Both the position numbers and the translations under genes were made by a program. 64,000 nt of DNA from Amoebophrya sp. A120 (taxonomy: Eukaryota; Protista; Dinoflagellata), in contig CAJINV010000005.1 in NCBI GenBank assembly GCA_905178155.1, forward strand, positions 8,471,591-8,535,590, read 5' to 3'. The notes under the pieces were generated by a model, which searched no databases, was not told the DNA's origin, and worked only from the letters and a program-made list of their open reading frames with translations. The first letter of the stretch is position 1. The number at the start of each line of letters is the position of its first letter. Positions 1,498-56,815 of this stretch are shown one piece after another.

Positions 1498-4423
1498 ATG
1501 CTGCGCCAGGACCACTACCTCCGTCTCTTCGTGTTTCTGACGATTTTTGTTCTCGTAGTCGCGGCCGTGATCAACACCGACTTGCTCCACGACCACCACT
1601 TTGCGCAGCCAGTCTTCGCAATCGAACAGAAATCCATGCAGCAAGCTTCCCTGGTGCAGTCCCAGAATACCAAACATCTCCGCACAGAAAGAACAGGACA
1701 AGGCACGAGGTCTGCAACATCAGCAGCGTCGAATAGTAAAGCGCGAAGTACCATTTCCTCCGACGCTAGTACAGCAACATCCGCGTCGATGTTGGAACAA
1801 GACGCTGCAGCTACAGGAACATCAACCACAGCACAACAAGATGAAGACGTCACCCAACTTGTCGGCCAAGACCGGCCGGAGGACGAGGATTCCGGGAAGG
1901 AAATTATTTCCGGGCAACGGACTTACGAGCGGGAGAACACACCGACTTACGAGCCGAGCAGCATCCTATGCATTGCAAATGTGTCTGGGTCGGGAAGAGT
2001 GGAACTTGTAATGCTGACTGCGGATTCTAAAAACATTTGTGTTGCATGAGCAGCAAGAGGAGTCAGTTCTTGTTATGCGCAGAGGGCATTTCTCATGCGT
2101 CAGTAGCATCGAGAAGCTCTCAAAAAATCAGTGATGCCAGCATCAGCATCACAGACCTCACGGGTCATGCAAAATGTGCATGACAAGCCCCGACTCTTCC
2201 AGACCCAGACATATTTGCATTGGATACATCCGGCCGCCGATTGATTACGACCGGTTCCACAGCTACGGGCAACAGGTGTACATCCCCGATGGGACTGCGA
2301 GTGAAGAGGAAGTCGCGAACCACCAACTGCGACACAAACGAATGCTGTTTCAGCTGCAGATGGCGGAGCAGCTCGGGATGAAGGAGGAGGATATGAACAG
2401 CACAGGTGATCGAAACAACACGGACAGGAAAAAGTTCAAACTACCGTCAGTTGGCAACGTCGACGCGAGACAGACGCAGCGGAAACCCTACAATCTGGCG
2501 AAAGCGAGTTTGCCGTGGTCGGGCTACATCAAATTCTCCGACGTGCAGACTGGGCAGCAACAGTATAAATGAGATTTAAAAACTTATCATGCTGTACACA
2601 CACGACACAAAAGTGGAAGCAGCTTGCCTTGCATGATTTCACGCATGACAAAGACCTTTTCAAGTTACTGATCAACCCAAAAACCAAATCAAATCCCACA
2701 GCGACCTTTGCCTCGGCTACGTGGAGGACGCGAATATTTATCTCGGTGCGAAGCAAGCCCAATCCCAACTCGGAGATTTTGACGAGGTAAACATCCTGAC
2801 CTGGGGGTCCTGCCCGACCGCGAAATGGAGTTTGATCCCCCAGATGTTCCCGACCTACGACGGAAGATATTTGTTCAACATCGAGTGGAACCACACTGGG
2901 CTCTTCCTAGCCTCGTCCCGCTGCGAGCCGCCGGTCGGGTCCAACTTGTTATCCCTCGCGGCCTATTTGACGAACGAAACCATCGGAGCGGGCAAGAATA
3001 TTGCGTCGCTGATGGGCGATAGTGATACTAGTGCGGAGCAGAATGCTGGTGCGTCGAATTCAACCACAGACGGAGGTTCTTCTGCGTCCTCTAGTGCAGG
3101 AGCCGCGTCTTTGTCCGTGGAAGAGCAGCAACAACTGGCGAAGAAACTACTCCACTCCTGCTTCCAGTCTTTCCCGAAGGGTACGTATCCGATCTTACTT
3201 TCGCGAACCTCGCCCACTTTGTTCCAGCTAAAGTGGGACGGTACCTCTTTCCACCCGCGGATGTTCGAACTGCAGACGGCGTATGAGGAAGTCCCGGATC
3301 CGGATAAAAGCAATGTGAATGTGCACCTCGCACTGGACGAAACCAACCGGATGGTGCGGCACCGGTCGCAAACCGGGGGGACAGAACAGTTGAAGGTGGC
3401 GTTGTTTCCGCCGATCTACTGCGAGTGGGCGAATGACACGCTGTGCACCTACGAGGAGGTCAACGACTGGCAGTACGAGAAAAAGTTTGCGAAGAAGGGT
3501 TTGTTGGTGCTACTGACGAATCAAGTGAAGGAGTATGGTATAAACTAAAGTTGTTGCGTTTTTCTTTTTCATAATTAACTTTTTTGAAAAAGTTTAATGC
3601 AGTGATAAATACGGGAGTTACGCATCGTCCAGCTTCTGCAGCTTTCATGCACAGATGCATGTTTTTCTTCCGAGAGATGTTGTAGCCTCGTTGTGATTAA
3701 CACTTTCATATGTAGTCAGTGCATGCGATCAAAGAAGTGACTCCCCTCTACCACCCTAGTTTGACATTCGCATAGCATTTTACTCGAGAGAAATTTCATT
3801 TGATGATTGAGAAAAAAAACTCCAAATCAGTATCCATCGTGTTGTTCCACCCTTACTCCTACCTCTTCACGTTTTTCTACGCCATTGTGCTCGTCGCGTT
3901 GTATTTCTGTTGCAAGGGCGCAAGATTCCTCGTGAACCGGCACTACGCCCCGGGGGCGGTGAATCCAAAATCCGGCGGCACGGTGGCGCAGTTGGCGCAC
4001 GAAAGGTACCAACTACAACTCTCGGACATGGCTTTCGGCGTCCGCGCACACCCCCTGGACACACCGAGTACCAGCCGGTTTACGCATAGGAACAACGAGA
4101 AAGCGATCGAGGACCAAGAAGCGTTAGACGCGGCGCTCCCCGCGCCAGACCGCAGTACGAGATCAATCGGCGGGAACGTCGCGAGGGTGGGGTCGGTCAC
4201 GGTGACGGGATCAACATCTTCCGCGAATGAACAGGATAATGCAAATGAGCAAAGCAGGAATAGCGGTACTAGTCGAGCAAGTCGGAGAAGTTCAAAAAGT
4301 AAGAGGAATTTTGCTGAACTAAATCTAGAAGAAACAGCGGCGTTGTTAGGCGAGGACGACGCCAGCCCAGAAAGAAATTCAGTGTCGAGGAAGGGAAAGG
4401 GGAAGGGCAAGAAAGGAACGTGA
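1498..4423 (+). CDS. Hypothetical type I membrane protein (N-terminal hydrophobic signal, C-terminal TM and basic tail), 4 exons
   Basis: In-frame joins: introner 1967-2226 (EPSS|IRPPIDY), GT-AG 2563-2701 (GQQ|HDLCLG), GT-AG 3538-3830 (VKEY|VSIVLFHP). TM YLFTFFYAIVLVALYFCC. Frame is open from ~1303, so the start is uncertain. Confidence 0.75.
1967..2226. mobile_element. Introner family A (TIR TATnnnnTGCAAATATGTCTGGGTC)
   Basis: DR catcc/catcc. Confidence 0.95.
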
Positions 4424-5248
4424 ACGAAGAGGAAAACTTGAAAACTTCTTTCGCGTGCCTGTAAGATGATGAAACAAATTTATTAAAATGATCGTGTTTC
4501 GAATTATGCAGGGGCAAGAAACCGTATGGTCAGTAAAGTTTCCAAGAAGAAGAATTATATATTTGGTACTTTTTTAGTACAACTCTTCCACGAACACTTC
4601 ACAGTTTGTCTCAAGCTCTATCACGAGCTACACTCATCTGACTTGTTCCAGAAGGAAAGGCAGCGATCTTCTTCCCTCTCCTTGGGTTTTTAGACACAAT
4701 CGTGGTAAGTATGCACCGTAAAAACCCTAAACCGGTTCGTACTCGTAACTCGAAAATTTCGATGAGTCGCATGATTTGTCGTCGAGAGATAAGGCTGCAT
4801 GCTAAGTTCCTTAGTCTCTCGGGTGTTCTGTCGAAAATCGTATCAGCATGACTTCGTACGAATAGAGACGCGATCGCATAAAAATCATGTTTCGTTTCTT
4901 TCAATTTGTCGCTGAGAGAGGGTCGTGCTCGTGGTCGCAACCATGAACCATCGTGTTTTGCCTCTTCGAACTTTATCCTCGCACTCGCTTCGTATCATCT
5001 TGCAAATCGTCAGATGTGATTCAGAAGACAGTTGCAACGTGTCGTGTCAGAAAGAAGTAGTGATCTTCTACTAGCAGGCGTCCTAGTTGTCATAGTAAAG
5101 ACTAGAGCTTGCGATTGTGGTGTAGTAAAAAGTACTACCAAGCAGCCGCAAGAAAGAACAACTCAGCAGTGATGCGTTGAGAACAAATCTGCTATAGAGA
5201 AGCGTTGGAAGCTAACTTACTAAAATAATCGGCTAGACAAACAAGAAA

Positions 5249-8200
5249 ATGATTGCCACATCAGCGCAGCAAGCAGAACCGCAGCCAGCGACATCGTCGT
5301 CGCCTGCTGTGCCAGAGGAGGTCGTGGGTGCTGCCGCAGCTCCGGAGATCATGAACAGCATGGATATCGGCGGGATGAAGAACAATTCTGCAGAGGGAGG
5401 GGAGGCGCAGGTAAGTAATTGTATTTATGTTTTCGATCACATAATATGCTGGAACTTGTCATGCGCTTGGGCTTGGCCCAAAACTGAAGAATTCTGTCAT
5501 GCTTGAATTGCAATTAGTACCTACAGACACAAAGTCGAAGATATTCACTTTACCGACAGCAAATCATCCCGCAGCATTTGGACAACGGGAACAACCAAAA
5601 CACCGTATCCTAAGCAAAAACGTCTCCACCCCATAGTCAAGTTGGGAATCTTGCAACACAAATCTCCAAGTTTTGGGAGCTGTGCATCATGACAAGTTTC
5701 CCTCTGCAGTGTAGTACTGGTTGACAAGGGAAGCCGCATGAGAAAGCCACTTTCTCATCCTGTTTACAGCATTACAAATTCCAAAACACGATTGGAAATA
5801 CCTCTCGCTCTCATTGGAGCTGCGCATTACAAATGTTCCTGTCAGTGCACATTGGCATGACAGCCCTGGGGTGGGGACGTTTTTACTCAGGATACACCGC
5901 TTTCTCGCCCATCGATGTGGACGAGCAGCACAAAAATTTGCAGCAGCAACTGGCCCAGCTGCAGCAGTTGCAGTTCAACAACAAGTTTTGTTTTGAAAAC
6001 AACTTCCCCTTTTTCAACCTGATGAACAGCCTGCAGAACAACGGTACCGCAGCCGGTGCGACTAGTACTACCTATACGGGCGCAAACGCAGCCATCGGTG
6101 GTCCGATTTCGAATTCCACTACCTCCAACAGCTCCTCGAACGAGAGCCCGACGGAAGGTTTGACGATAGACGTCTCCAAACTGGTGAACTTTCTGTCCAT
6201 GTCCGCCGGGGCCGCAACCTCGCGGAACACCACCTCCACCACCGTTTCGGGCGCGACGTCTGCGGGGGGCGTTTTGAACGCTGCCAACATCGGCGCAGCC
6301 GCGATGGGAGCCGCGGGCGCGAATCCCATCACGAACAACGGCATGACCACCCACATCACGCCGACGGATTGCTCGCCCACAGATTCGGACATCAATGCGT
6401 TCAACATGCAGTTTTTCCAGAATCAGGTGCTGAATTTCCAACAAAATAACGCCCAGCAGCACTCATCTTCCCCAAACAATACTTTCGGGACGAACAGCGG
6501 TGTGGGGATTGGGACCATGAACGTCCAGAGTTTGGTGGAGCACCAGGAAAACAGTAAGATGGTGCACCGTGGTATGGTGTTCTCAACTGTTACACTCTCA
6601 GCTGTTGCGTGGATTTGTTACGCAAGAATGGGAAAAGTGAAAGGGGGAGGATTGCGCCTGTAGCATTACAAATTCCGGACAGATTTCGGTGCTGTGTAGC
6701 CCTAGGCAAAGTTGTCATGATGCGAAGCAGCTTGATCGGGTGGATGATGATGGTGCTTTTGCATGACAAACTCATGTAACAGTTGAGAATGTAACGGTTG
6801 AGAACCCCATACGTGGCGACAACAGTTCTTACCAGTTTCATCACAACATGCAGCAGCAGCAGATGCAAGGGACGAATGGTTATCAACAGTTCAATTACAA
6901 TCAGAACAACGGCGGGAATACTAACCACATGAACCACAACCGTTCGGGTTGTCGGGATAATCAGCACCAGATGCACAACAACTATCGTGGTGGTTCCCGA
7001 TCGAACTACCACTCCCGGAACCCGAGCCGGTCCGGCGAGCAACAAGGCTGCTCGTCATCCGAGCAACCAATGTACAACCAGCACCGCGAAAAATCGGTGA
7101 CCTACTGGAAGAACAAGCAGAAGGAAAACGGGCAGGGTGGCAACATGCAGACAAGCAACATCAACCGCGGTGGTTGTGGCACTAACCAAAATTCTACTGG
7201 CGGTTCCTGCGCAGCCCCGGGGTTCATCAATAATCAACAGCAGAATCAGACTACGACCAACTATGACACGTTCAACGGAAACAATAGTGGTTCTGGATAC
7301 AACAACGACCAAAATTACAACAACAACCAGCAGAACCAGTACAACAACTCGGACATGCAGAATAACATAAACCACAATCGGTGGAACACCCGTCCGGGAG
7401 GGAATCAGGGTGACAACGGAAACAACAACAATTGGGGAACAATGATGAATAACAACAACTCTTGGAACAACATCACAAATCAGAATAATTCCTACGGTAA
7501 CCAAAACCACAACCCGAATCAGCAACAGCAATTCCATCAAAACGATTTCTCTGTGAAAAAGTACCAGGAATTACTGCAAAAGTCCTACCACTCGATCGTC
7601 CCGGCGTCGAAGAATTTCAACCCGAGTATATGCATTGCAAATATGTCTAGGTCTGGAAACTTGTGATGCATGTCAGTGAGAAGAAAGCGCACTGTAATGC
7701 ACCGCCAGGCATGACAGATTTATCCTTGGCTCCGTGTTGCGTATTCCGCACGACAAACAGCGTTTTGGCATGACAGATAAGAGGAGCTCTTGCTGGCCAC
7801 GCAATACAGAGCTCAGTGTCATGCCCGACTAGCATGACAAATCCCGTATCCTTCCAGACCCAGACATATTTGCATTTGATAGAGCACGGATTTACCCAAG
7901 GACGGGCGGTATTCGCTGCAGAAGAAACCGACTATCAAGTGCAAATATCTATGCCTGGGTTTGGAAGAATGCAACTTGTAATGCTGCACTTGGATCCCAA
8001 AAAAATCTGTATTGCATGAGCAGCAAAGGCGGGAGTGTAATTTTTGCTACGCGGAGAGGGCATTAGCATTTGTCATGCGGAAGAGGCATCAAGAAGCCCT
8101 CAAGAAATATGTGATGCTAGGGCATGCATCACAGACATCATGGCTCATACAAAACTTGCATGACAAGTCTCAGAATGATTTCCAGACCCAGGAGACATAT

Positions 8201-9872
8201 TTGCACTTGATAACGACCTACTCGAAACAGAGTTTCCACTCAAAAAACACGACTGCTTCCTACAACGGGTCCGGTATGGGCGGGGATCATGGGGGAGATC
8301 AACATCAACCTGGGCACCAGAACTACAACGGAAATAATTCGCATCAGCCCAAGCGGTTCGTGTGTGTGTTCTGGATCTCGGAATGTACGACGTCCGATAA
8401 CAGTTACAACCACGGTGCTGCTTCCTACAAACAACACTATGGTTTTGGAAACAACAAGGAACAAAATCTCGACTTTGTGGTGGTCAAGCGGATCCTCGGG
8501 AAACACGGAAATTATGAATTGCAAAAGTATCGTACTCGTAGTAATTGCAGTCATGCGTTACAAATCCTTTGCCTTAACGTAAATCCGCATTACAAATTTT
8601 ATTTCTCATGCTGAAATGAAAATTTGTGATGCATTTATACGAGTACGATGCTTTTGCACAGGATAGAAACAACATGCGATCGATCTTCGAGGAGACCGGG
8701 TGCAATATGAGAGTGCGCAAGCCCCCCTCCTCCTCATTTGTATGGCATGAGCAGCAATACAAACACCAGCACATGTGGAGCCTATGCGTGACAAATTCAT
8801 GGGTCTCATGTAGAAGTACTGTTTGGGCTTCCAGAAGAATTTGTCATGCCAACAGTGCCACAAAGCAGCGACTGGGTTTAGGATTTTGCATCACAAATGA
8901 GGGCGGGGAGGCGGAGTTGTGCATTCTCATATGCAAGGTCCGGTTGCGCGGCCGGGGGTCCGGATTTTTGGAGGGACCGGATCGGAAGGAGTCGACGGAA
9001 CCCTTGCAGTTGCATGTTTCCTGCCTGGAGTATAGTTATTGATGTGGGTTGTTTGTTATGCGGAAAAATTTCAACTTTTTCGCAATATGGTGGAATGCAT
9101 TTTTGTCATTCAGGCGTTTCTTTGAATCACTTCACAGTCACAGAGCGGATTTGTCATGCATTTTCACACATCAATTCCAATTCAATATACAGGAACTTCG
9201 AGAAGTATCAGCAAGCGGTGGAGATGGTGACGAATTTGTTGACCGACATCTACTATGCATTGCAAATATCGATCTGGGTCTGGAAAAATTCCAACTTGTG
9301 ATGCAAACTCAGGATCTTACAGAAATTTGTGTTGCGTAAACGCCAAGACCGAGAGCCGCCAATTTTTTGCTAGGCAAATAGGGAGTTTCTTTCTCATGCA
9401 GCGCAGGCATGAAGAAGTAGCCCGCGCAAAACCTGTAATGCTTTTACGCGCATTCCAGATCAGCTGCTTGATGCGCAAGATGCATGACAAACAAGCGTAC
9501 TCTTGCAGACCCAGACCTATTTGCAGTCGATATCTACGATGGTTACAAGCGGTTCTGCAAGCGGCACAGCCTCCCGATCCCTACTGGTGAGGACCTGCAA
9601 GTTATGATGTTGAGGCAAAATATCATCTGATCTACTTGCTTCAGGAAGTCGAAGTTTGTGATGCGTGAATCGAAGGTGTTGCATGAAAGTTGAAAGAACA
9701 AACTCTGTGCCGCGCAGCTTTGCATCACAAATTCTTATACTGCTCGACGATGATGATGTTTTTGTCGTTCATAGAACTCCGTATGGAAGAGGTGCGACGG
9801 GATGATTTGAAGCAAGCCAATCAGGCGGCGCAGGTGCAGATCCCGGTCGCGCAGCAAGGAGTTGTGCAGTAG
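5249..9872 (+). CDS. KH-domain RNA-binding protein (SF1/BBP- or KHDC4-type KH) with long N/Q-rich low-complexity region, 11 exons
   Basis: Spliced product has VVKRILGKHGNNMRSIFEETGCKVRLRGRGSGFLEGPDRKESTEPLQLHVSC (GxxG loop, LRGRGS motif). GT-AG introns 5411-5526, 9030-9192, 9587-9774; 7 introners, all joins in frame. Confidence 0.9.
5606..5894. mobile_element. Introner family E (TIR TATCCTnAGnAAAAACGTCnCCACCCCA)
   Basis: DR caccg/caccg. Confidence 0.95.
6573..6811. mobile_element. Introner family I (TIR TATGGnGTTCTCAACnGTTACA)
   Basis: DR cgtgg/cgtgg. Confidence 0.95.
7629..7881. mobile_element. Introner family A
   Basis: DR gagta/gagca. Confidence 0.93.
7933..8212. mobile_element. Introner family A
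   Basis: DR ccgac/acgac. Confidence 0.93.
8513..8665. mobile_element. Introner family B (TIR TATnnnnTGCAAAAGTATCGTACTCGTA)
   Basis: DR gaaat/gaaac; at the end of the KH GxxG loop. Confidence 0.95.
8706..8931. mobile_element. Introner family C (TIR TATGAGAGTGCACAACTCCCCC)
   Basis: DR tgcaa/tgcaa. Confidence 0.95.
9254..9532. mobile_element. Introner family A
   Basis: DR tctac/tctac. Confidence 0.93.
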
Positions 9873-11817: not shown

Positions 11818-12659
11818 ATGCCGCAGTCTCCGTGCCTGAATGAGATCCTGGCCTCCCCGCTGGTTACCGGCGAAGGCCTGGGACTGGACCTGCCGAAGCC
11901 GGAGGTGTTTCAGGAGAACAAGAAGATCCAACTGGTCGAGTCGGTCGACGCTGGAAAGAAACTGTTCACCGAGTTTAAGCAGTCCGCGAGCAAGATGTCG
12001 GTGTTGGATTTTTCCGAATCCGAGATCGCGACCACGCCCTTGGACGCTCTGACCGACTGTATAATGATTCTGATAGTACAACTGATTTAGTGATCTGTCA
12101 TGTTGTATTGCTCTTGCTGCATGAATAAACCGTCTTTTCTTGCAAGGTGCGCATGACAAATCCAAATGTTCCTATCCATTATGAAAAAATCGAAAATCTT
12201 CACAGTGAAGTCGAAGAACTTCCCCTTCGATAAGGAGGCGGAGAAGTTTACTGCGGCCGGTTTTATGCGGGTTTTGAAGGAGCAGCGCGAGGAGAAAAGT
12301 ATACTTCGTTTTCTTTTGCAGTTTGTCTTTGTGCATGATACCCCAAAGATTAAGTACATCGTGACAAACAAGAACAACAAAACAAACTAACAGCCTGGGT
12401 CAAGCCGATTGCCCTGTCGCCCGCTATCTCAAAAGCGTCCTGCATGACCGCCGGTTCGGGAATGGCTGCGATTAAGGCCCCCTCGGTGGCGGGATTCGCG
12501 GTCAAGAATCGGGACTTGGCCAAGGCGGAGGAATTGAAGAAGGATGCGGTCAAGCGGTGGATCCAGGCGCAATTTTCTGCGATGAAGTTGCTCCCCACGC
12601 GGCGCGAGGTGATCGACGCGGTGGTCGAGATGGAGGAAAAACTGGACGGTTTGTTGTAA
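11818..12659 (+). CDS. Hypothetical protein, MP(Q/N)(S/T)P family member, 3 exons
   Basis: GT-AG introns 12059-12205 and 12299-12393 join three ORFs in frame; N-terminus similar to the genes at 17946 and 19898. Confidence 0.75.
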
Positions 12660-13187: not shown

Positions 13188-13617
13188 ATCACCTGATATC
13201 ACCTGATATCACCTGATATCGCCTGATATCACCTTATATCACCTGATATCACCTGATATCACTTGATATTATCTGATATCACCTAATATCACCTGATATC
13301 ACCTAATATCACCTGATATCACCTGATATCACCTGATATCACTTGATATCACTTGATATCACCTGATATCACTTGATATCACCTGATATCACCTGCTATC
13401 ACCTGCTATCACCTGATATCGCCTGATATCGCCTGATATCACCTGATATCACCTGATATCACCTGATGTCACCTGGTATCACCTGATATCACTTGATATC
13501 ATCACCTGATATCACCTAATATCACCTGATATCACCTGATATCACCTGATATCACCTGATATCACCTGATGATATCACCTGATTTCACCTGATATCGCCT
13601 GATATCGCCTGGTGATA
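13188..13617. repeat. Tandem array of 10-mer ATCACCTGAT (~43 copies)
   Basis: Directly visible, with minor variants such as ATCACTTGAT and ATCGCCTGAT. Confidence 0.97.
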
Positions 13618-13625
13618 TGCCGCCG

Positions 13626-14050
13626 GCCTGGGCAGGTGACCTGCCTCTGACCTGGGCAGGTGACCTGCCCCCGACCTGGGCAGGTGACCTGCCTCTGACC
13701 TGGGCAGGTGACCTGCGCCTGCTCTAGGCAGGTGACCTGCCCCTGCTCTGGGCAGGTGACCTGCCTCCGCTCTGGGCAGGTGACCTGCATCTGACCGGGG
13801 CAGGTGACCTGCCTCTGACCTGGGCAGGTGACCTGCCTCCGACCTGGGCACGTGATCTGCCTCCGACCTGGGCAGGTGACCTCCTGCCTCCGACCTGGGC
13901 AGGTGACCTCCTGCCTCTGACCTGGGCAGGTGACCTGCCTCCGACCTGGGCAGGTGACCTGCACCCGACCTGGGCAGTTGACCTGCCTCCGACCTGGGCA
14001 GGTGACCTGCTCCCGGACCTGTGACAGGTACCTGTGACAGGTACCTGCTG
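13626..14050. repeat. Tandem array of 24-mer GACCTGGGCAGGTGACCTGCCTCY (~16 copies) with internal palindrome GGCAGGT-G-ACCTGCC
   Basis: 24-bp period visible; it generates the spurious GRRQVTCP-repeat ORFs. Confidence 0.95.
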
Positions 14051-15349
14051 CCGGACCTGTGCAGGCGGGTTGCGCAGGTATCTGCGCAGATCCCTGCTCT
14101 CGGATCTGTGCAAATACCTGCACAGCTCCCTGCACATGCATCAGTCGCGTGATGTAACTTCCAGGTTGCAGTCATCGCTAGGTGGTTCTAGGTTGGGCGG
14201 AATTGACCAATGTGCATTTTCCACCCATGGAAGACAGAAACTCGCCCTCGTTATTATCGCAAGCACAATAGAGAAGTTGAACAGGAGAACGAACAAGAAG
14301 ATCGTAGATCGGTATAACAGGTTTTACACGACCGTATTGCGCGGCTTTGTTTATAATCTATTTCGAATATGTGTTTCACAGGTGAAAATTGAATGTACAA
14401 CTACAGCAGATCGCTTCAACGACAACTATGATTCATTTCTTCAGGTTTTCTTGTACAAAACAAAAGAATAGACCAAAGCAGATTGTTTGATTTTTCTTGA
14501 AAAAACGTATGGTATCACGACCTTCTAACTTCGAATGCAATTGTATACCCGCAACTAGACCATCTCTACGCACCAGCTTTACTCGCTTGTGGTTCAGCGC
14601 CAGAGTATGGAGGACGGCACCAGAGGAAACAAGTATCGCCTGTGCGAGTACTAGTTTAGTAACGATCTTCGCGTGACTTATTTTACAACTATTCTGTACG
14701 ATTTCTGTTTCTCTTCAGACTAGGATCCCGATGTAAAAGTAGAGAAGCGCACCAGCGGCTTGCTTCCAGGCACATCAAGCTCCTGAGAATACCAGAAGGA
14801 GAACAAGATATTGCGGTGTCTGCGGCAGCCAGATTCAACGACACGGACTCTACAAAGGATTTTTGAAATTTGAGAACAATTCATTGAATTCACAAAGCAC
14901 CGTATCTTCAGAATTCTGCGCCTTTTTCCTTTCTATAAATCGCGTTCGCGCATAGGCAGGTGGAGCGACAGCTCCTTTCGTACTGGAGTACCATCTAGTG
15001 GACAAGAGAAATTAACGCCTCGTGGTCATCGTGTCTTGATCGCCGCTCGTTTATTTCTCTTTCGAAATCTGTATGTCTCGTTATCGTTTATCGTCGTTTC
15101 CCTCGCTCGATGTTGATCGTTATGTCGTTTCTCTTTGTCGTCCAATAAGGCCGTTCTGATTTTCTCGTCAACGCTCGCTTTGGGAGTAAAAATTGAGCTG
15201 TAATATTTTTGGTTTCTGCAGTCACACAAATGCCGAGAAAAAAAAAATACGGTAGAAAAAATCAAAAAGCACCTAGAAAAAATCAAACCGGGCTCCCACT
15301 GTAGAAAAACCCTGTCGGGTGCTTTGAGAAAAATCGAGAAGAAAGCAAG

Positions 15350-17945: not shown

Positions 17946-18502
17946 ATGCCCAATTCCCCCTGCAAGGCCGAGAACTTCTCCCTCGGCATCGAAGTGCCGA
18001 AGTTGAAGAAGCCGAGTAAGGAACCGTTGGTGCCCACCGAGAAGGTCGCGGGGTTCTTCCTGCAATTCAAGGAGTCCCTGCCGAAAAAGCTCGAGATTCC
18101 GGAGGAGAAAGACCTCCAGAAGGGACTGCAGAGCGGTAGAATGGTTTTTGTTATACAACTTTGAGTATGAAAAAAAAAGATAATGTAGTTTGACGACTTC
18201 ATGCTTGTCATGATGAAAATAATGTTGAGTAGGAAGGAGAAAGCAAAACTGCATCCTCTCTTACAGTGCCGGTCCCGAACTTTACGAAGTTTAATGTGGA
18301 AGCGCACAAGAAGATGGTCGAAAAACAGGAAGAGGAACGCGCGCAGCACAACAAGAAGTTCGTCGAGGCGCAGCGCGCGGCGGCGTTGAAGCCGGTGCAG
18401 CAACCGGTGTGCGCGTCCGCGCGCACCCCCTGGACACCCCGAGTACCAGCCGGTTTACGCATAGGAACAACGAAAAGGCGATCGAGGACCAAGAAGCGCT
18501 AG
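17946..18502 (+). pseudogene. Chimeric or truncated paralog of the 19898 gene, fused out of frame to a copy of the 3' end of gene 1498
   Basis: GT-AG intron 18136-18266 at the same position as in 19898; homology to 19898 stops at ...KPVQQPV (~18409), then the sequence switches to a copy of 4038 onward. Confidence 0.65.
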
Positions 18503-42000: not shown

Positions 42001-43519
42001 GAACAACAAACGCCAACAGCAACGGGAAGAACACTGGCGAGGGGTTCTTGGCCAACGCGAACGCAACAAATAAAACCATTACGGGAGCAGGTGTACTAGA
42101 TCAAGATGCTTTAACCTTTCTCGATTGCTGCTTCTACGGAACCATTGTCATTGCAGTCTTGCTGATATGCACTGCAAAAACATCGTACTTACTAGTATGA
42201 GTCGCATGACAGATTTCCTCAGCTTGAGAAATGAAATTTGTAATGGAGATTTAACTTGAGAAAGAAATTTGTAATGCAGGAATGCGATTAGTACGAGTGC
42301 GATACTTTTGCAGTGCATGACTGACACTCGCATTGGTCTTTGTGCTCTTCCTCTTCCGCAAGGAATTGCAACAGCTGCGAGGGTATGGATTGTAAAAATG
42401 TCTGGGTCTGGAAGAATGCAAGATTTGTGATGCAGCTTTTCCATGACCCATGAGGTCTGGAATGCAGGACCTAGCATGACAGATGCTGCGCGATCTCTCT
42501 CATCCTCATGCCTATCCTGCATGAGAAACTCCCTCCCGACTTGGTCAAAACTGGACGGCTTTTGGTAGTTATGCAACACAGATTTTTGCATGCTTGAGAT
42601 TTAGCATGACAAGTTGCAATCTTCCAGACCCAGACATTTTTACAATCCATAGAGGGACAGGCAAGCAGAAGCGACGAGGCCCGGCGGCGCAGCGGTGGCG
42701 CCACAGGAGCAGAGCCTACGCAAAAGATGCACAGCAGCACCCTCTTTACAACAAGAAGTACGAGCAGGTTGATGAAGTTGGAGGGAAGATGTTGAAAAGG
42801 ACCACGGCAGTCGTCCCGACGGCGCATCACCGGCAGGGAAGAAGAACTCCTTCTGCCCCCCGCGGGGGTGATCATGAAGATCATCATCCGCGTGCTGGAC
42901 GAGGAGGTACTGTCAGCACAGCGACGCTGAGAGATCGAAGGCCAGGGATGAACAAAGGGAGACATCAACCCGGTAGTTCCCCAACAACTGGTGCGCAGCA
43001 GGGGTCGCGACGTGGAGTAGACGTTGTAAACAAGAGCGCCAAGAAAATGAATACTGGTGCGACCACAACTACCTCGTCCCGGCCGGTAGACGCCTTGTCA
43101 CGAAAAATGGTTCTCAACGTACAACAAGAACCACCACCACGGCAGCTGTCGGGGGTTTCTGAGGAGGCAGGAAACACGACGCATGCCATGGAAACAACAG
43201 CTGCGACTACAGCGCATGAAGATCGAAACGTGTCCATCCCGATTATCGCGGTCGGAAATATGCATTGCAAAAGTATCGTAATATAGTAGAAATGGAAATC
43301 GCGTTACGAAAACGAACTGGCTCAGCATTACAAAGAAATGGAATCTGTCATGCTGATTTAAATTAGAAGGAAAATAAGAATTTGTCATGCATAGCTGCAA
43401 TTACTACGAGTGCGATACAACTTTTGCGGTTCATAGGAAGGAAAGAACAGCAACAACTGCAGGACGCGATGGATTTTGACAAAGCTATGCTGGCGGCGGA
43501 AATGAATGACAGGAGATGA
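39008..43519 (+). CDS. Type I membrane protein with two PAN/apple-like Cys domains (candidate adhesin), 11 exons
   Basis: Signal-like IIFALLVVVL; CQRNCTENPACMGFAY..NCVY and CERLCEEDRNCAAYQF...GTCRLY; TM FYGTIVIAVLLTLALVFVLFLF appears only after removing introner 42166; 10 introners, no canonical intron; alternative start 38948. Confidence 0.8.
39706..40019. mobile_element. Introner family F (TIR TATnnnnnGAAAAATCCCCCCTCC)
   Basis: DR gactg/gactg. Confidence 0.92.
40333..40541. mobile_element. Introner family D
   Basis: DR cccgc/cccgc. Confidence 0.95.
40589..40738. mobile_element. Introner family B
   Basis: DR tcgcc/tcgcc. Confidence 0.95.
40829..41058. mobile_element. Introner family C
   Basis: DR actcc/gcccc; left end TAC. 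Confidence 0.87.
41101..41382. mobile_element. Introner family E
   Basis: DR acaat/acaat; internally similar to 5606-5894. Confidence 0.95.
41449..41659. mobile_element. Introner group G
   Basis: DR ctttt/ctttt; TIR core GAAAAAAGTGnTACAGTTACACA. Confidence 0.92.
41733..41997. mobile_element. Introner family A
   Basis: DR cagga/cagga. Confidence 0.95.
42166..42319. mobile_element. Introner family B
   Basis: DR gctga/actga; right end ATG; splits the TM helix. Confidence 0.9.
42384..42651. mobile_element. Introner family A, reverse orientation
   Basis: DR gaggg/gaggg; interior is the reverse complement of the 37495 type. Confidence 0.95.
43259..43435. mobile_element. Introner family B
   Basis: DR ggaaa/ggaag. 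Confidence 0.9.
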
Positions 43520-44534: not shown

Positions 44535-47500
44535 ATGGGTAGTTCTTCGCCGCCAGAGGGAACAACAAGTAGAAACACGGAGAAAAAAGTAGACACGCGA
44601 AGAACTACAAGTAGAGCACGACAGCACGACACCACGAGACGGCATATAGAGCCACGTAGCAGCAGCAGTTCTTCACCTTCGATCGAGAGTAGTGTTTTGA
44701 GCACTTCTTCTAGCAGCCTGAGTTCTTCTAGCAGGAGTAGGAAAAATCTTCGCGGCGCTGCAGGAGGACAGCAGCATCGAGCATCCCCTACTTCGCGGAT
44801 TGAGAAAACTGAAGGAACATCAGAAGTCGTACCCAAAATATCAAATCGAGCTGGTGGAACAACTGGGCCATCATCAACTCGTGCAGGAAATACTAAAAAC
44901 ATCCTGTCGCACCGCAGCCGCAGCCGCACTCGGAGTAGTCGGACCGTGGAGACAACTGCTAGAGCCGCTGCAGTTCCTCGGGTCGGCGGGGAGGACAAGA
45001 AGAGAAATACGTCGCCTGGTGCTTCGAAGGACGACGACGAAGACGAACGAGAAGAGGACGGTGACGCAATCATGTCGAGCTCCAGCAGCTCCGGAGCGGC
45101 GCCGACGGCGGGAAAAAAAACCACAAATGATGTTCCCAACACGGCCGGGCGTCGCACGCTGCAGGAATTGAAACAAGCGTCGCCGTATCAATTGCAAAAG
45201 TAGCGTACTTGTATAGATGCATTACAAATTTCCAGAGCATGAGAAATGAAATTTGTAATGCGGATGTAGCTTCAGAACAAGATTTGTGACGCATGCTTGC
45301 AATTACTACGAGTGCGATGCTTTTGCACAGGATACACTGCCGTTTTTTCACCCGGAGGCGGTAACCAGCTGGCGGAAAATTTCCAAGTCTTCCTCGTCGA
45401 AGAGCGGAGAGAATTCGATCGACTCCATCTACTCGATATCAACTGGTGAAATATGTATGGGTCTGGAAGGTTGCAAGACTTGTCATGCAGGTTTTCCATG
45501 AGGACGCATTAGGTCTGTCATACGTGCAGCTCTGGCATGACAGATTCTGCGCGAGGACCTGTATCACGCCTTCTCTGCATGACAAACTGCCTCTCAAGAA
45601 CTTGGTCAAATAAAGTAGGGAGCTTTTGGTATAATCACGCAACACAGATTTTTGCACTATCCAGAATCAGCATGACAAGTTCCAGCGCTCCAGACACCCA
45701 GGGAGATTTGCAAGGAATACTCGATCGGCGGGTCTCTGCTCCCAGACAGCGACGACAGCGACAAGTACTGCAAGAGCGCACTGCTATCCTGAGCAAAAGT
45801 ATCGTACTCGTAGTAATCGCAGACATGCATTACAAATCTTGCTCTCAAGGTAAATCCGCATTACAAATTTCATTTCTCATGCTGAGGAAATTTGTAATGC
45901 ATTCATACGAATACGATACTTTTGCAATGCATAACTGCGACGGTCCGACAAAACGGAGGTGGTGTTGAAGGGCAGGCACAAACTGCGGGGCTTCAAGGAT
46001 GAGGAAGAGCTCGAGGATTGGAAAGTGTCTATGGCTTTGATGCACTACGTAACAAACAACAACGGAAGCAGTGGTAGCAGTAGCAGCACGTCTACTTCAG
46101 CTGGTGGAGCCAAAACCTCTGGGGATAAGAGGATAGCGCAAAACAACCCGCTGCCAAACATCGCACAAATGTATCCTCGAATTTTTGCTTTGTGTGATGT
46201 AAGACTGAGGAGTTAAAGTGAATTTTCATGTGCAATAAATGCAAAAATAAAACTACAAAGAATGTTCAAACAAAAATCAGCTCCGAGCTTTTGGAAGTAT
46301 GGAGAGAAAAAAGTTTGTCACAGTCACTCACTTGCAGGTTTTGCATTACAAATTTTCTCAGCATCACAAACTTTCCTTGTATTGCAGAAACACTAGGGAG
46401 ATCCCTGATGAAGTTTGGCTGTGATGCATTTTTACGCATGACAGGCAATTTTGTATTGCAAGAATGCGCATGAGTGATCGTGACGAACTTTTTTTCTTTG
46501 ATAGGAAGACGAAAAGTGGTACTATGCGGTGATGGAAAAAGTCCACGGGCGCGACATGTTTGACTTCTTCATAGAAGATATCAGATGCAAATATGTTTGG
46601 GCGGTCTGAAACAAGAATGCAAGTTTGTGATGCTTGGTCGACAATACAGAAAAGTCTGTCATGTTTGTTGCGCTACAGAAGTGCCGCTGGTTTGTCATGC
46701 AAAAATGCCATTTGTCATGCGGTTACGCTAGATGTAGCCGCTCAGAAACTTGTCGTGCGCGGTTCTGCAATACAGTTTTATGATTCGGATATTAGCATGA
46801 CAACTTTCCAGACTCAGACATATTTGCAACGCATAGAAGAGAAGCTGGCCAAAACGGACGACCTGAACTTAATCCACAAGATCGCACTGAACTTCATCCG
46901 GCAAGTCTGCAATGCGCTGCACGCACTACACTCCAAGGGCATCGTGCACCGGGACCTGATATCAAGATGAAAAATCCCCCCTCCTCATTTATTACTAAAA
47001 CGGAGATTTGTGTAGCATGATTTGCTACCACATATCATGTTGTCATGCTGGAAGGCAAAAGGTGCGGACTGTAGTGCTGGCTGGCGTGGGAAAGCCTTGC
47101 GCCTTCAGCATGACAGGAGGCAACTGGAACTGGGAAACAGCATGAAAAATTGCCTGCAATTCAGGCCAATAGTGCGGCTCTGGGCCTTCTAGCAAAATAC
47201 AAGTCGACGTGTGTACGCAAATCCAGCATCACAAATGTCCTTTTCAATATGGGGAGGGGGGATTTTTCCCCTGAATATCTGAAGTTCGAGAACATCGTGG
47301 TGGTAGAGAACGGCGGAAGTTGTCTATGGGAAGAAAAAACTGTTTCGCCGTGAAGGACTTGTGATGCATAGATCGGTACACAGAACTATTTGTCTTGCTA
47401 CACCTGCAATGCCAGGACTCTTCAAAGGTGTTTTCCCTTTGGAAGCGCGCGTGGCAAATTTTCTGTGTCATGTGTAAGTATAGAAACTTGTGATGCAGAT

Positions 47501-49663
47501 CTTGCAAATAAAAATCATCACAGTGAAGCATTTTTTCCTGCGATATTGTCACAACGGCTCATCGTCTCCAAAAAGGGCCTCGCCGGTCTTTGACCCAGCA
47601 AGAATGGAGGTATGATTCATGGTCATGCGCAGGTCTGACAGCATCGCTGACTGTGTTTTTTTTTGTCATGCGCAAATAGCACCATTGGCATTGGATCATC
47701 GAATCTGTGATGCAGTAGACCCGGCTTCTTTTGACAGTCAAATTTTACCTATGAGAAAGCTCTCCACCTCTCAGGTAAAGCTAATCGACTTCGACACGGC
47801 GGAGATTTTTGACGCGATATGACCTGCGAATATGTCTGGGTCCCATGGAAGAGTTGTGCACTGTTTGTCATGCACGGCTAGGATGCCTCCCAAGCCTGTC
47901 ATGCACGTTACCCGAAAGTAGCCACATTTCTCTGTCATGTACGAACGCAGTGGGTGAAGATGCTGATAGAAGACAACACTGACTATTGTAATCAAAAAAT
48001 TTCGCATGCTTGGCTGTCAACGTAGGCATAGGCGTTCGCATGATTCGCCGAAATACACCAGCCTCCACAAGTTTCCACACAATCCAGGGATATTTGCAGT
48101 GGATACGCGAACCGCATATACTACCATGTTCTCGGGTATGGAAGTGTCAGGATCGAAATCGGCAAAATCAAAAAATTTGTGATGCATAAAATGTAGGGCA
48201 CTGGAGGCCTGCATTGGGGAGCAGGCAAATGAGACCGATTGCAAGCCTGTTTAGGGGTATGCAATGTGCTGCCAGAGTAGCACGACAGGAGCAGTCTTCT
48301 TTGCCCAAACAACATGGCAGACTGGATTTGAGTGCTCCCGAAATTTGTCATGCGCCACTTACAAATTGAGGCTCCAACTGGTATCAATTTTTTGCATCAC
48401 AAATTTTTCGATTTTGTCAATTTCGATTCTGACACTTCCATATCAGGACGGATCAGTACATCGCACCTGAAGTGTACGCCGGAATGGTGACGCCCGCTTG
48501 CGTAGGCTTTGCGAAAATCATATCGTACGAGTAAGTAGTATTACTGCATTACAAATTTGGATTATTTCTTGCCCAGCATGAGCAATGCAAATGCAATTTG
48601 TAATGCGGTGGATTCAGCTCAAAAAAGAGAATGCAATGCACAAATGCAATTGCTTTTCCTACGAGTGCGATATTACTTTTGCAGAGGACATTGTGACATG
48701 TGGGCCGTGGGAGTGATGCTGTACACGCTTTTCACCGGAACTTTGCCCTATGCATTGCAAATATGTAGTCTGGGTCTGGAAACTTGTGTTGCTGATTCTC
48801 GCATTGCAGAGCGGTCGCTTGTACAGTATCACAGCATCAGAAGTTATTTTGCCAGGCTTCTTGCAGCAGGTCTCAATTCCTAAAACGCATGACAAACTAT
48901 ACCATATCCAGCACGACAAAAAATTAGAATTACCCAACCGCATTTTATGCATCACAAATCCTTGTTGTCCTTCACATCCCGCATGACAGATCGATATTTG
49001 CAATCCATATGCCCTTTCACAACGCGATATTTGACGACGAGCCGGGGGAGAATTGGGTCGGAAATCCGGCCATGGAAAAGATCCGCAGGAGGCTGAAACT
49101 GGTCAAGATTGACTGGTCGCACCCTGTATCAAATGCAAAAATGTCTGGGTCTGGAAGGTTGGAACTTGTGATGCTAACTCTGGACTGTAAAAACATCTGT
49201 ATTGCATGACCAGCAAGAGGAGTCCAGTTTGTGCTACGCCGGGAAGGAATTTGTCATGCGGAGTAGGCATCAGGAAGGAAGATCTGTGATGCTAGGTAGT
49301 GCATTACAGGATCCTGGGTCATGCAAAATATGCATGACAAACCCGGCAACATTCCGGACCCAGACACTTTTGCATTTGATACCCTGTGTGGAGCGAAAAA
49401 AGACCGTCGAGTCAATCCATCTATCCTGTGCAAAAGTAATATTTTGCATATAGTCGTAGTCACTGCGGAAACCAGATTTGTCATGCAACTTATTGCACCG
49501 AACAAACTACTTCTACGACTGCGATAATGTTTTTGCACTGCATACCATCGTGCAGCCAGAGTCTTTGGTCAAGGATTTTTGCCGCCGGTGCTTCGCGTTT
49601 GAACCGAGCCAGCGCTTGACTGTAGTGGAGGCTCTGGCGCACCCGTGGCTAAGCGGAAAATAG
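44535..49663 (+). CDS. Ser/Thr protein kinase, CAMK/CDPK-like but atypical (DFD, no GxGxxG), 16 exons
   Basis: After splicing: VVLK, PNIAQISELLEDEKWYYAVME, HSKGIVHRDLKFENIV, VKLIDFD, VLGTDQYIAPE, CDMWAVGV, RLTVVEALAHPWL. 13 introners; GT-AG introns 46171-46280 and 47610-47774. Confidence 0.93.
45186..45334. mobile_element. Introner family B, opposite orientation to 45785
   Basis: DR cgccg/cactg. Confidence 0.9.
45437..45719. mobile_element. Introner family A, reverse orientation
   Basis: DR ctcga/ctcga. Confidence 0.92.
45785..45933. mobile_element. Introner family B
   Basis: DR actgc/actgc. Confidence 0.95.
46298..46503. mobile_element. Introner group G
   Basis: DR ggaag/ggaag; TIR core GAAAAAAGTTnGTCAC. 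Confidence 0.92.
46579..46835. mobile_element. Introner family A
   Basis: DR gaaga/gaaga. Confidence 0.93.
46960..47277. mobile_element. Introner family F
   Basis: DR cctga/tctga; splits HRDL|K. Confidence 0.96.
47325..47545. mobile_element. Introner family D, opposite orientation to 40333
   Basis: DR ttgtc/ttgtc. Confidence 0.93.
47818..48105. mobile_element. Introner family A (degenerate)
   Basis: DR cgcga/cgcga. Confidence 0.9.
48137..48442. mobile_element. Introner family H (~50-bp TIR TATGGAAGTGTCAGnATCGAAAT)
   Basis: DR tcggg/tcagg; splits VLG|TDQY. Confidence 0.95.
48503..48690. mobile_element. Introner family B, decayed ends (TAG...ACA)
   Basis: DR ttgcg/ttgtg; splits AC|DMW. Confidence 0.88.
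48749..49009. mobile_element. Introner family A
   Basis: DR tgccc/tgccc. Confidence 0.93.
49127..49381. mobile_element. Introner family A
   Basis: DR ccctg/ccctg. Confidence 0.95.
49422..49544. mobile_element. Introner family B (short)
   Basis: DR ccatc/ccatc. Confidence 0.9.
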
Positions 49664-53294: not shown

Positions 53295-56200
53295 ATGAAC
53301 AAGATGTTGTCTTCGTGTGCTGTTTTATTCTTTTCCCTAGCGGGCGGCCATCAAGTCGCAGTCCTGGCCGCCGAGTCGCCGACTTCCCCAGGAGGTGGTC
53401 CTCGTGGTCCCGCGCTGAGTATTCTTAATTTTCACGGCCAAGAGATGCAGAGGATTCCGTTTGCAGAATTATGCATTGCAAATATGTCTGGGTCTGGAAA
53501 CTTGTGATGTAAGTCTGTGAATCGTGGGCCCACTACAATATGCAGCCAAGCATGACAAGCTTTTGCATGTGCCATGTGCTTCGTTTTCCGCATGGCAAAC
53601 TGCGTTTTTGCATGACCACAGGGTGTCCGTCTCAACGATACGATACGATGACAGACAGGAGGCCCCGTTCCTGCTTACGCATCGCAGATCCAAGAGTCAT
53701 GCCAGACAAGCATGACAAGCCCTGCATTCTTCCAGACCCAGGCATTGTTGCAATGCATAAGATTGGTGGTACAACAACCGGACAGTTGCGGACCTTTTCA
53801 ACAAGGTGGAGACCGGCGAATGGGAGCCAGCGTCGGCGCACGAGGAGGATGCGGTGTTTGATTGTGGAAGTACCGCGCAGCTCCTCGCGGTCGATATTGT
53901 CCCCGTTCGCTTTGATAATACCTTATCACAAGAAAAAAATGTAGTCACAGGCAGTTACACACGACCCTACGGATGCAAGACCAGCAAGACGTCATGCAGG
54001 AAATGCGTGGCAGTCTCATTTCATGCGTGTTTCTTTCCCTTATAGTCTGCGCACCACAACAAGTTTTCTTTGCCATGCAGGACAACATCTTTGTGATGCT
54101 GAAACTACAACATCAAATGTGTAATAACTGTGGAGCCTTTTTTTTCCGGTGATATCCATGCGTCTTAGGAAAGTACCAACTGACAGATCCGCAGGTACTT
54201 GGGGGGTTTCCACAAGTACGGAAGGCTGCGCTTTTCTCTTCTTCGTCCACGCCCCCAGAGAGCAAAGATATACGGCTCCGATATGTCCGTGCTACGCGCC
54301 AGAAGCTAGCTTTTGCCACCCTGCTCAGAAAAATGTACCGCTTACTCACGGTATCCAGGAACGCCCCGCTACTTGAGTCTTCCGGTCCCACAGCGGAGAA
54401 GGCGGACCTGAAAAAGTTGCTGGGCGACTTCTGGTATGCTCTGCAAAAGTTGTGTCTGACACTCGTACGAATCGCACGCGTGCATGAAAACATCGGAGCT
54501 ACTTTCTTTTTACCTAATTCTGCATCACAATAAATTTTCATCTTCTTCTTGGAGAAATCATTTGCCAAATGCGATTTCACTACCAGTACGAAATAGTACT
54601 TTTGCAATGCATATCTGGCACGAGCATACGCACGCACCAGAAGTTGTAGAGGTGCAAGATGGGCAGCCTGGTCGTTTAGAGCACCAGCTTCGAGCCTTTT
54701 TGATGGGCCCCGGTCGGAGCACAAGATCGCCGCATGATCCGGCGCCCGCAGCGTATTTACTACCCGACGACGCGGAACTTCGTTGGTTTCTGAATCAGAT
54801 TATGAAATCCAAATGTGTCTGGGTCCTCTGGAACATGATGGCAACTTGTCATGCCAAATTTGAATCATGCAAAAATCTGTGTTGTATGATTGCCAACAGC
54901 TGCCCAGACTTTTGACCAAGTTGAGGGGAGGTTTGTTTCTCATGCAGGATTTTTGGCATTTGAGGTTGATAAAGTAGATCTCCCTCTTCACAGAATCCAA
55001 TCTGTCGTGGTCCTGAGTCCTGCATTTCAGACCTCATGAGTCATGTAAAACCTGCATGACCACGACGCCAATCTTTCCAGATCGGCAGATCGATATTTGC
55101 AATGCATACAGGTGGACCGTGCTCTCCTGTCGGCTGCAGCGGAGCCTCAAGAACAGGCGGAAGCGGAGTCGAAGATTGTCCTGCGTTATGGTTCTCCCGG
55201 ACAAGGAGTGAAGGTGTACTCAGCAGGGGAAATTAATCCTGGACACGTTAGAGTTAGCATTGAGGTGGGCGGCCCCCGCCCCGGCCCGGCCGCCGCAGAA
55301 AATCCTAGGCCCCGCCAGGGACGCGGCAGAGGACGTGGCAGGGGCCGCGGCCGGCGGGACAACGAGGTGGACCCGCAGCCGAAGGCGGAGCCGGTCATTT
55401 CCAACTATCCCAGAGAAAAAAGCAGGCAGGGCATATAATTTGTATATATGCAAAAACAATAAATACGCAAAAATAAAAATCTGTCACGGGCGGCCTTGTA
55501 GCATGCTGTTTAGGATCATTCGCAATACAGATTTTTTTGTGTATTTATTCTTGCATAATTATCTGCCTGCTTTTTGTTTTTTCTGTGGGATAATAGTACC
55601 AACCAAACTGTGCATATACCTCCAGAAAGCATGCCGGCGAAGATTTTGGCGAAAATTTCTCGGGAACAAGAACAACGGCGCGACCCACGAATGCGTGGAC
55701 GACACCTCAACTTATCAATAGGAAAAATCCCTCCTGCTCCCCATATCGAAATAAAGGCATGCTTCCGAGATGAATTTGTGTTGCTGATTTGAGGCCACAA
55801 ATCACATTTGTTTTGCAAGAAGACACGGGCACCAGAAGCTTCCGCCCCATTAACATTATGGAAGCGAGCTGCCATGCTGTTGGGCCTAAAAGTGGCCAGC
55901 CGCTTGCCGTGCTGCACAACTAGACCCAGACGGTCCTTCTACCTAGCTTGGGGAAGATCTGGCCGCAAGAGTGCCTCTCTGCAATACAAACCTGATTTCT
56001 TGTGTACACAAATTGAGCGTGAGATGAAAATCCGTTGTGATATGGGGAGGGGGGATTTTTCCATACGATACCACTCTCCTTTTCCTCCCGCGTGGCTCCG
56101 CACCTGGGATTATGGATTGTAAAAATGTCTGGGTCTGGAAGAATGCATGTTTGTCATGCTTGTCTGGTATGACTCTTAAATCTGTCATGCACGTTACCCA

Positions 56201-56815
56201 GGAGCTCTGTTTTTCTGTGATGCAGGAACGCAGTTTGTCATGCAGAATAGGCAACACCTAGAAGCTCAGAAACTTTTCATGCTGAGCGAGCATTTGTGGC
56301 CTCACATGAGACGCCACCCAGCATCACAAGTTTCCAGACCCAGACATTTTTACATTTGATAGGGGTTTGAGTGTGGTGGAGGACGGTTTTGAGATGGACC
56401 ATCGGCATGGAGTTGGGGCGCTTCTTCTATGCATTGGAAATATGTCTGGGTCTGGAAGAATGCAACCTGTCATGCTGATACTGGATAGTGCAAAAATCTG
56501 TGTAGCATGATTACCAAAAGCTGCCCACTTTTGTTGACCAAGCAGCGAGGGAGCTTCTCATGCAGACGAGGCATGATAGAGGTCGGGGAGGAGCAGAATC
56601 TGTCATGCTGGTGGGTCATGTATATGACAGAGGACCTCACGTGGTCGCGACATGGATGAAAACTGCCATGACAAGTCTTGTAACCTTCCAGACCCAGATA
56701 TTTTTGCAATCCATATCTAAGCATCACATGCGAGTTGGAGCTGCGTGAGGAGAACCGCTATGGCCTGACGCTCTCCTTCACCTTTCGTTTAGTTTTTCAT
56801 CACGGCATCCCCTGA
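53295..56815 (+). CDS. Hypothetical secreted protein with internal RG repeat, 9 exons
   Basis: Signal peptide MNKMLSSCAVLFFSLAGG; 8 introners, all joins in frame to ...FRLVFHHGIP*. Confidence 0.8.
53470..53759. mobile_element. Introner family A
   Basis: DR agaat/agatt. Confidence 0.92.
53924..54154. mobile_element. Introner group G
   Basis: DR tacct/tccat. Confidence 0.85.
54435..54613. mobile_element. Introner family B
   Basis: DR tctgg/tctgg. Confidence 0.93.
54801..55108. mobile_element. Introner family A
   Basis: DR cagat/caggt. Confidence 0.9.
55406..55592. mobile_element. Introner group G-like (TIR TATCCCAnAGAAAAAA..GCAGGCAG)
   Basis: DR lost (ccaac/atagt), but removing 5 nt still restores frame. 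Confidence 0.82.
55713..56070. mobile_element. Introner family F
   Basis: DR caact/ccact. Confidence 0.9.
56111..56361. mobile_element. Introner family A
   Basis: DR gggat/ggggt. Confidence 0.92.
56428..56715. mobile_element. Introner family A
   Basis: DR tcttc/tctaa. Confidence 0.9.

Follow-up and report, generated by a model that had tools for sequence, protein, structure and literature searches.

The introners of the dinoflagellate Amoebophrya sp. A120 are described in section 11 of Farhat et al. (2021; PMC7789003) as bounded by an inverted repeat (IR) of TAT, seven variable bases and at least three A residues, with direct repeats of 3–5 nt (5 bp in the legend to their Figure S19). That paper reports 29,850 A120 introns of this kind, gives RNA-seq-supported junctions for them and, in section 16, where U1 snRNA is stated not to have been found in A120, leaves their mobilization and splicing open. 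Gozashti et al. (2025; PMC12130899) class most of 58 A120 families as terminal inverted repeat (TIR) DNA elements of unknown superfamily with automated target-site duplications (TSDs) of 2–6, and one of them, family 38 (row 580 of SD07), as Ginger, with the entry "5-bp TSD, TA/TA Termini" and integrase-like homology and with no enzyme shown. We analyzed a 64,000-nt stretch of A120 contig CAJINV010000005.1 (positions 8,471,591 to 8,535,590, forward strand; the window), in which 65 curated TAT…ATA inverted-repeat elements lie between positions 1967 and 56715. An earlier note on this stretch, made from its letters alone, had given the same span and 64 elements.

In light of these two publications, the element system is that of the already described A120 introners, and finding it here is a rediscovery. 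The earlier note had correctly named Amoebophrya introners: two exon searches returned deposited proteins, P0001 and P0003, that are named as A120 and are 100% identical to window exons. The features shared with the introners of Farhat et al. (2021) are the organism, the TAT-N7-AAA ends, the direct repeats, the repeated families and the lack of an internal transposase, so the novelty claimed in the note was overstated; likewise, A120 family lengths of ∼149, 208, 260, 278 and 305–320 bp in Gozashti et al. (2025) match window families. What appears to be added is modest: a spaced motif shared by all families, junctions that show no selection for GT or AG, and an explanation of the published splice-dinucleotide spectrum by choice of register. 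In the text of Farhat et al. (2021) consulted, we found no mention of a cross-family motif, its spacing, empty paralogous sites or register ambiguity; Figures S19 and S25 of that paper may show some of these. We favor, with a probability of about 0.6, the reading that the elements are A120 introners that arose as non-autonomous TIR transposons, are likely spliced precisely without GT or AG signals, and likely carry one array of binding motifs for a shared transposase. A120 is one of few eukaryotes in which most introns ignore the GT-AG rule.

The nonconventional introns of Euglena (Nomura et al. 2025; PMC12501133) are comparable in that most introns are likewise non-GT-AG, have a MITE-like (miniature inverted-repeat transposable element) origin and coexist with GT-AG introns, and in carrying, at their ends, short inverted triplets that do not coincide with the cut sites. 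They differ in their code, N3CDG...CHGN5-6 with a purine at the exon start, where A120 has TAT...ATA, a 5-bp duplication that is intact, and a motif array in the interior; the end profile of the A120 elements does not fit the Euglena signature N3CDG...CHGN5-6|R.

Element ends, direct repeats and related loci

We scanned for TAT…ATA pairs whose termini are complementary and which are flanked by a repeat. This gave 53–54 candidates, against 0–2 passing pairs in each of 20 dinucleotide shuffles, and curation brought the set to 65 elements totaling 14,254 bp (median 221 nt). The 5′ TAT is present in 62 of the 65 and the 3′ ATA in 63, figures that partly reflect ascertainment, and the terminus profile is TAT[GC]. 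Within the terminal IR (TAT, seven variable bases, at least AAA) divergence is 1.7% in TAT, 27% in the variable bases and 3.7% in AAA. The flanking 5-bp direct repeat is perfect at 39 elements, matches at 4/5 bases in 16, at 3/5 in seven and at 2/5 or fewer in three; thus 55 of 65 have at least a 4/5 repeat, and the repeats have no base consensus. These ends and repeats are as the earlier note had them. It gave about nine families; the interiors form nine clusters at 55% identity (16 at 60%; by manual grouping, eight multi-copy families and five singles). Its statement that the interiors are unrelated did not wholly hold, since it had missed a motif array common to all 65 (below). Family members occur in both orientations, even inside one gene (45186 and 45785). 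An Rfam search returned no match. Gaps between elements peak at 40–80 nt and are seldom below 30 nt (7 of 416); a periodic spacing of the elements was looked for, and nothing convincing emerged (best period 12, z 5.5 after scanning).

In a duplicate at 36556–36859 (268/297 aligned bases, 90%), elements 32924 and 33139 are missing, and of each 5-bp repeat there is a single copy; on the simple reading these empty paralogous sites reflect target-site duplication, the alternative being precise loss from the duplicate. Related loci (129, or 390 kb, from metagenome contigs) were recovered with one element end as the pattern, and carry the same element families at up to 97% identity. When 326 of their elements were paired by TIR alone, with no repeat filter, 250 had a perfect 5-bp repeat, while perfect repeats of 4, 6, 7, 8 and 9 bp numbered 2, 0, 0, 0 and 0. 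The TIRs, the 5-bp duplication and the empty sites support the view of the elements as non-autonomous, MITE-type TIR transposons, an origin the earlier note had also proposed.

All 65 elements lie within predicted coding regions. No intact element was found in the ∼30 kb of intergenic DNA in the window, where the sole clear remnant outside genes is a truncated copy of the 150-bp family at 59414–59523. In the related loci, which lean genic because they were chosen around an element, flanks are coding-like for 91% of 306 elements, compared with 91% of 134 exon controls and 19% of 207 intergenic controls. Upstream and downstream frames agree with removal of the element plus 5 nt at 212 of 235 oriented sites, a partly circular result because orientation used the spliced segment. 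Among 146 copies of the 150-bp family, 70 are forward, 41 reverse and 35 unoriented. Four related loci (L030, L031, L063 and L065) have elements beside or within conserved genes (topoisomerase II, kinesin and ribosomal L4 domains), where homology could fix the register.

Reading frame, splice boundaries and removal

When each element and 5 nt are removed, 51 of the 65 sites fall inside open reading frames (ORFs) of at least 200 aa, compared with 11–23 for out-of-frame lengths. Removal of the element plus 2 (57/65) or plus 8 (49/65) also passes, so this test fixes the removed length merely modulo 3, and the exact length of plus 5 comes from the deposited proteins. Removing the elements with one repeat copy, together with 12 predicted GT-AG introns, opens ORFs of 1690 aa (18 elements), 789 aa (10), 594 aa (13), 462 aa (8) and 799 aa (8). 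Removing an element and one repeat reproduces P0001 and P0003 at 22 of 23 sites, including all 13 in the P0003 kinase, which is identical to the spliced model, and nine of the ten in the PAN-domain protein P0001, which reads on into the tenth (43259) to a stop. The restored junctions that the earlier note had singled out (8513, 42166, 46960 and 48137) check out as well. The deposited A120 models stem from a transcript-based pipeline (Farhat et al. 2021). Nearby in-frame GT-AG alternatives exist at 23 of the 65 sites, and the deposited proteins do not use them. At 9621–9773 and 55406–55592 the repeat has decayed to 2/5 and 1/5, yet removal of the element plus 5 nt still keeps frame, which suggests that the direct repeat is not needed for removal. 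The element at 43259–43435, whose TIR is weak (13/20) and whose repeat matches at 4/5, is a candidate for intron retention or for an annotation miss in P0001.

Programmed DNA elimination, which the earlier note had left standing as an alternative, is unlikely. Ciliate internal eliminated sequences are absent from the transcribed somatic genome, and a similar excision during part of the A120 life cycle, with transcripts made from the excised copy, would fit the TA-type ends, the precise loss of one repeat copy and the confinement to coding DNA. We know of no germline/soma split in this group, however, and the elements persist in two independent assemblies, that of A120 and an environmental one; the rarity of gaps below 30 nt (7/416), as expected of a minimum exon size, the apparent turning of eroded copies into GT-AG introns (below) and the RNA-seq-supported junctions of Farhat et al. 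(2021) also speak against it. In this life-cycle form we consider elimination highly improbable, and return to the favored reading, in which removal from the pre-mRNA would be precise and independent of GT or AG signals, in keeping with the RNA-level removal of Farhat et al. (2021).

The elements lack canonical U2 GT...AG boundaries. A GT-AG pair is possible in any of six registers at three of the 65 sites (33139, 35730 and 48137); the statement in the earlier note that many sites have no such register thus stands, but one of its own examples, 48137, can be read as GT-AG. In 242 oriented copies, G precedes TAT in 84 (no enrichment) and AG stands four bases after ATA in 25, against 15–22 at other offsets (no enrichment); there is no selection for GT or AG at element junctions. 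The published tables of splice dinucleotides at first seemed to bear out a cut one base before TAT (below). When, however, the register closest to GT-AG is chosen in each of 192 perfect repeats, T at +2 comes to 0.68 and A at −2 to 0.69, and the published values for family 2 are 0.69 and 0.68 (Gozashti et al. 2025). Since register choice inside the repeat reproduces them almost exactly, the tables carry no information on cut position; as a control, this shows that such choice can produce the splice-dinucleotide diversity that has been reported.

Imperfect repeats, of which the window has 26, are the sites at which reads could fix the true cut position. Two already constrain it: the kinase glycine at 48137 requires at least three upstream repeat bases to be exonic, and the deposited residue at 45186 at least four. 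Together with the GTAT start of seven of the 12 local GT-AG introns, these mismatched repeats make a cut one base before TAT the likeliest register; the cut would then most likely fall four bases after ATA, and TAT would correspond to +2 to +4 of a local GTAT donor. Of 32 distinct repeat mismatches in the window (counted by hand without 9621 and the duplicate 23385), 17 are synonymous; this excess proved uninformative, as it fits one free copy, and the repeat mismatches in related loci include no stop-codon case.

Whole elements fold as long hairpins (z −7.4 to −11.2 in five of five folded), which the 12 GT-AG introns do not form (z +1.4 to −2.4). TIR positions 14–20 covary within elements (306/399 versus 287.5 ± 5.4), but positions 4–7, adjoining the junction, do not (113/228 versus 120.6 ± 7.3) and are heritably mismatched in the largest family, an observation biased by the search seed. 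The stem thus seems loose where it meets the junction, and TAT and AAA, which are constant, have the look of recognized sequence. Templating of positions 4–7 from the target was considered, and no relation was found; their below-null pairing was left out of account, being confounded by the search seed. Recognition would on this basis be of a symmetric end (TAT, with AAA at positions 11–13) on a long terminal stem, and splicing would be by a relaxed, U1-less spliceosome or with an accessory factor.

By analogy with what has been proposed for Euglena, separate, non-spliceosomal machinery might instead cut and ligate the terminal stem and release a circle. This differs from the favored reading in the splicing step only, and it draws on the long hairpins in five of five folded elements, the covariation at positions 14–20, the lack of selection for either G or AG, and the Euglena precedent. 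We nevertheless think it improbable, because the TIR positions nearest the junction do not covary and are mismatched heritably in the largest family (with the seed bias noted above), and because a single continuous machinery is suggested by the GTAT donors and by the eroded elements that have GT-AG boundaries today. As to the latter, four of the 12 GT-AG introns resemble element interiors beyond the shared motif, and thus some canonical introns are probably eroded elements. Ab initio prediction of GT-AG introns in the related loci was set aside, its precision on the window control being too low.

The shared motif and the mobilizer

An 11-base motif (GCA[TA]BACAAA-type sites) occurs in all 65 window elements and in both orientations; for one exact form, 49 matches contrast with an expectation of 0.12. 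Scored with a matrix derived from the window elements, the motif has a density of 19.2/kb in elements, 10.1/kb in GT-AG introns, 0.12/kb in exons and 0.33/kb in intergenic DNA, and the same matrix matches 318 of 321 related-locus elements with no strand bias (491 sense versus 484 antisense). Same-orientation neighbors lie 31–32 bp apart in seven of eight window families, and inverted pairs are spaced 16, 34 and 47–49 bp; in element 29214, for example, the array at 29256–29330 consists of a same-orientation pair spaced 31 bp, followed by two inverted sites. A spacing of 31 bp corresponds to three turns of B-DNA. In a leave-one-out comparison motif cores diverge by 10.6% and other interior positions by 28.5%. 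We found no description of the motif in the text of Farhat et al. (2021) and Gozashti et al. (2025) consulted, and the literature listings examined contained nothing relevant to it and no later paper on the mechanism; figures may show it.

The motif is likely a binding site of one shared mobilizing protein, and the array would be the subterminal binding site of a shared transposase. In 128 copies of the 150-bp family, variants present in more than three copies number 0.29 per column in the motif and 1.39 elsewhere, a five-fold deficit; for variants of more limited occurrence the figures are 0.89 and 1.21, only ∼0.7-fold. Shared variants being much rarer and rare ones slightly rarer, this points to selection on amplifying source elements, hence to a transposase site, in the one family compared and with later constraint possible. 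Emigrant/Lemi1-type MITEs, likewise short non-coding TIR elements with repeated internal motifs, reportedly carry subterminal transposase-binding repeats, with binding shown there. They are not introns, and in A120 a single motif, for which binding is inferred, spans otherwise unrelated families. The motif could be used as bait for the trans-acting protein.

Insertion would be the work of a DDE enzyme, possibly integrase-like, making a 5-bp staggered cut. By analogy an integrase-like enzyme is the leading candidate for the mobilizer; the earlier note had called the mobilizer unresolved, which overstates the matter, as the family 38 entry of Gozashti et al. (2025) points to an integrase-like family with TA/TA ends, though no enzyme is shown there. 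Ginger2/Tdd elements (Bao et al. 2010; PMC2836005) similarly have long TIRs, and TDD-4/5 likewise make 5-bp duplications. Ginger elements differ in having TGTNR ends, mostly 4-bp duplications and a target preference, where the A120 elements have TAT ends and no target consensus; their duplication length thus agrees with the Tdd subgroup only. An 815-bp element with perfect TIRs and repeat (L007:4528–5342) was considered as an autonomous copy and rejected: it has 240-bp-family ends around a nested insert, with no Pfam hit in four ORFs. By eye, the insert seems to be ∼570 bp long, to have a trinucleotide-repeat tail and to lie between direct repeats that are short, like a truncated retroelement, and this nested look is a caution against taking similar 800-bp families as autonomous. 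A bolder, unlikely possibility is that a single protein of A120, probably an integrase-like transposase that has been domesticated, binds the phased array in all introner families and in eroded GT-AG introns, and both inserts the elements into exons and marks them for precise removal, replacing U1 and GT/AG recognition; if so, a transposase's binding code would underlie the definition of tens of thousands of introns.

Several observations weigh against the favored reading. Strong motif sites occur without TIRs in eight of the 12 GT-AG introns (at the 10.1/kb given above), and sequence unlike the elements keeps the motif spacing (11 of 32 pairs at 31–33 bp); a role in transposition alone explains these as remnants only. 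Nothing in the behavior of an ordinary MITE accounts for the near-confinement to coding DNA. All 149 unspliced window ORFs of at least 110 aa, the spliced models P0001 and P0003, and 79 of 158 long related-locus ORFs were scanned without a transposase or integrase family turning up, and the earlier note had also reported none for the window; Farhat et al. (2021) report no transposase in A120 and argue against mobilization by one, and the termini, TAT[GC], are not the TGTNR of Ginger. On the splicing side, P0001 reads into element 43259 and the deposited models are the output of the authors' pipeline, the published dinucleotide tables are lost as evidence on cut position, and the case for excluding a cut directly at TAT is weak, depending as it does on one coiled-coil site in related locus L022.

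In line with the first of these points, the array might instead serve to mark introns or to guide splicing: a host factor would recognize it on DNA or RNA, and it would define the TIR introns and many GT-AG introns, whether or not the factor is also the mobilizer. Besides the strong sites in eight of 12 GT-AG introns, unmasked matches keep the spacing and lie near GTAT (within 60 nt) more often than random positions do (0.41 versus 0.20), rare variants too are at ∼0.7-fold in the motif, and U1 snRNA was not found in A120 (Farhat et al. 2021). Four of the 12 GT-AG introns have no strong site, however, and four resemble element interiors and may be remnants; the constraint falls chiefly on shared variants, the motif has no strand bias, and the variable motif base is unpaired between mirrored sites in alignments (by eye). 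On balance a splicing signal seems rather unlikely, and a transposase site, as in the favored reading, the better account of the array.

Host genes and neighboring sequence

Predicted genes across 1498–56815 are all on the + strand. The first, starting at 1498, holds an element of the 260-bp family (1967–2226) with a perfect 5-bp repeat and no GT-AG register. The predicted KH-domain (KHDC4/BBP-like) gene at 5249–9872 (+, 799 aa) holds eight elements (5606–5894, 6573–6811, 7629–7881, 7933–8212, 8513–8665, 8706–8931, 9254–9532 and 9621–9773). It is Asn/Gln-rich and possibly encodes a splicing-related RNA-binding protein, itself split by eight elements. Two elements (20502–20638 and 23385–23511) occupy the identical site in duplicated genes. 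The predicted 1690-aa ORF (25842–34555, +) has 18 elements between 26260 and 34007, starting at 26260, 26984, 27832, 28284, 28788, 29214, 29440, 29713, 30605, 31016, 31327, 31607, 31888, 32466, 32662, 32924, 33139 and 33846.

A predicted ∼130-aa gene (35370–37915, +) follows with five elements between 35459 and 37755 (starts 35459, 35730, 36221, 36860 and 37495). Removal of its 1.4-kb composite intron, 35730–37124, which has a perfect outer 5-bp repeat, restores the ∼130-aa ORF. Inside the intron are captured fragments of the neighboring 1690-aa gene (36040–36859, +, ∼90% identical), an element nested within it and a 49-bp exon start in duplicate.

The PAN-domain membrane-protein gene (38840–43519, +; 789-aa spliced ORF, deposited model P0001) contains ten elements between 39706 and 43435 (starts 39706, 40333, 40589, 40829, 41101, 41449, 41733, 42166, 42384 and 43259), and the protein-kinase gene (44535–49663, +; 594 aa, deposited model P0003) contains 13 between 45186 and 49544 (starts 45186, 45437, 45785, 46298, 46579, 46960, 47325, 47818, 48137, 48503, 48749, 49127 and 49422). 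The last gene, a predicted 462-aa one at 53295–56815 (+), has eight between 53470 and 56715 (starts 53470, 53924, 54435, 54801, 55406, 55713, 56111 and 56428); a protein search with one of its exons returned no deposited protein. The 12 predicted GT-AG introns, all on the + strand between 2563 and 47774, are 2563–2701, 5411–5559, 9030–9192, 12059–12205, 12299–12393, 18136–18266, 20100–20250, 27516–27625, 30195–30295, 37173–37388, 46171–46280 and 47610–47774.

Three neighboring tandem arrays with 10-bp, 24-bp and ∼91-bp GC-rich units lie between genes at 13188–17440 and are free of elements. A duplication of ∼1 kb, seen by eye (3946–4900 and 18420–19450), takes the place of the 3′ end in the gene that begins at 17946. 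A tandem segmental duplication at ∼19900–25900 carries truncated copies of adjacent genes and two intronless paralogs (21716–22462 and 24609–25319) with the Pfam "Luciferase" domain (PF17648).

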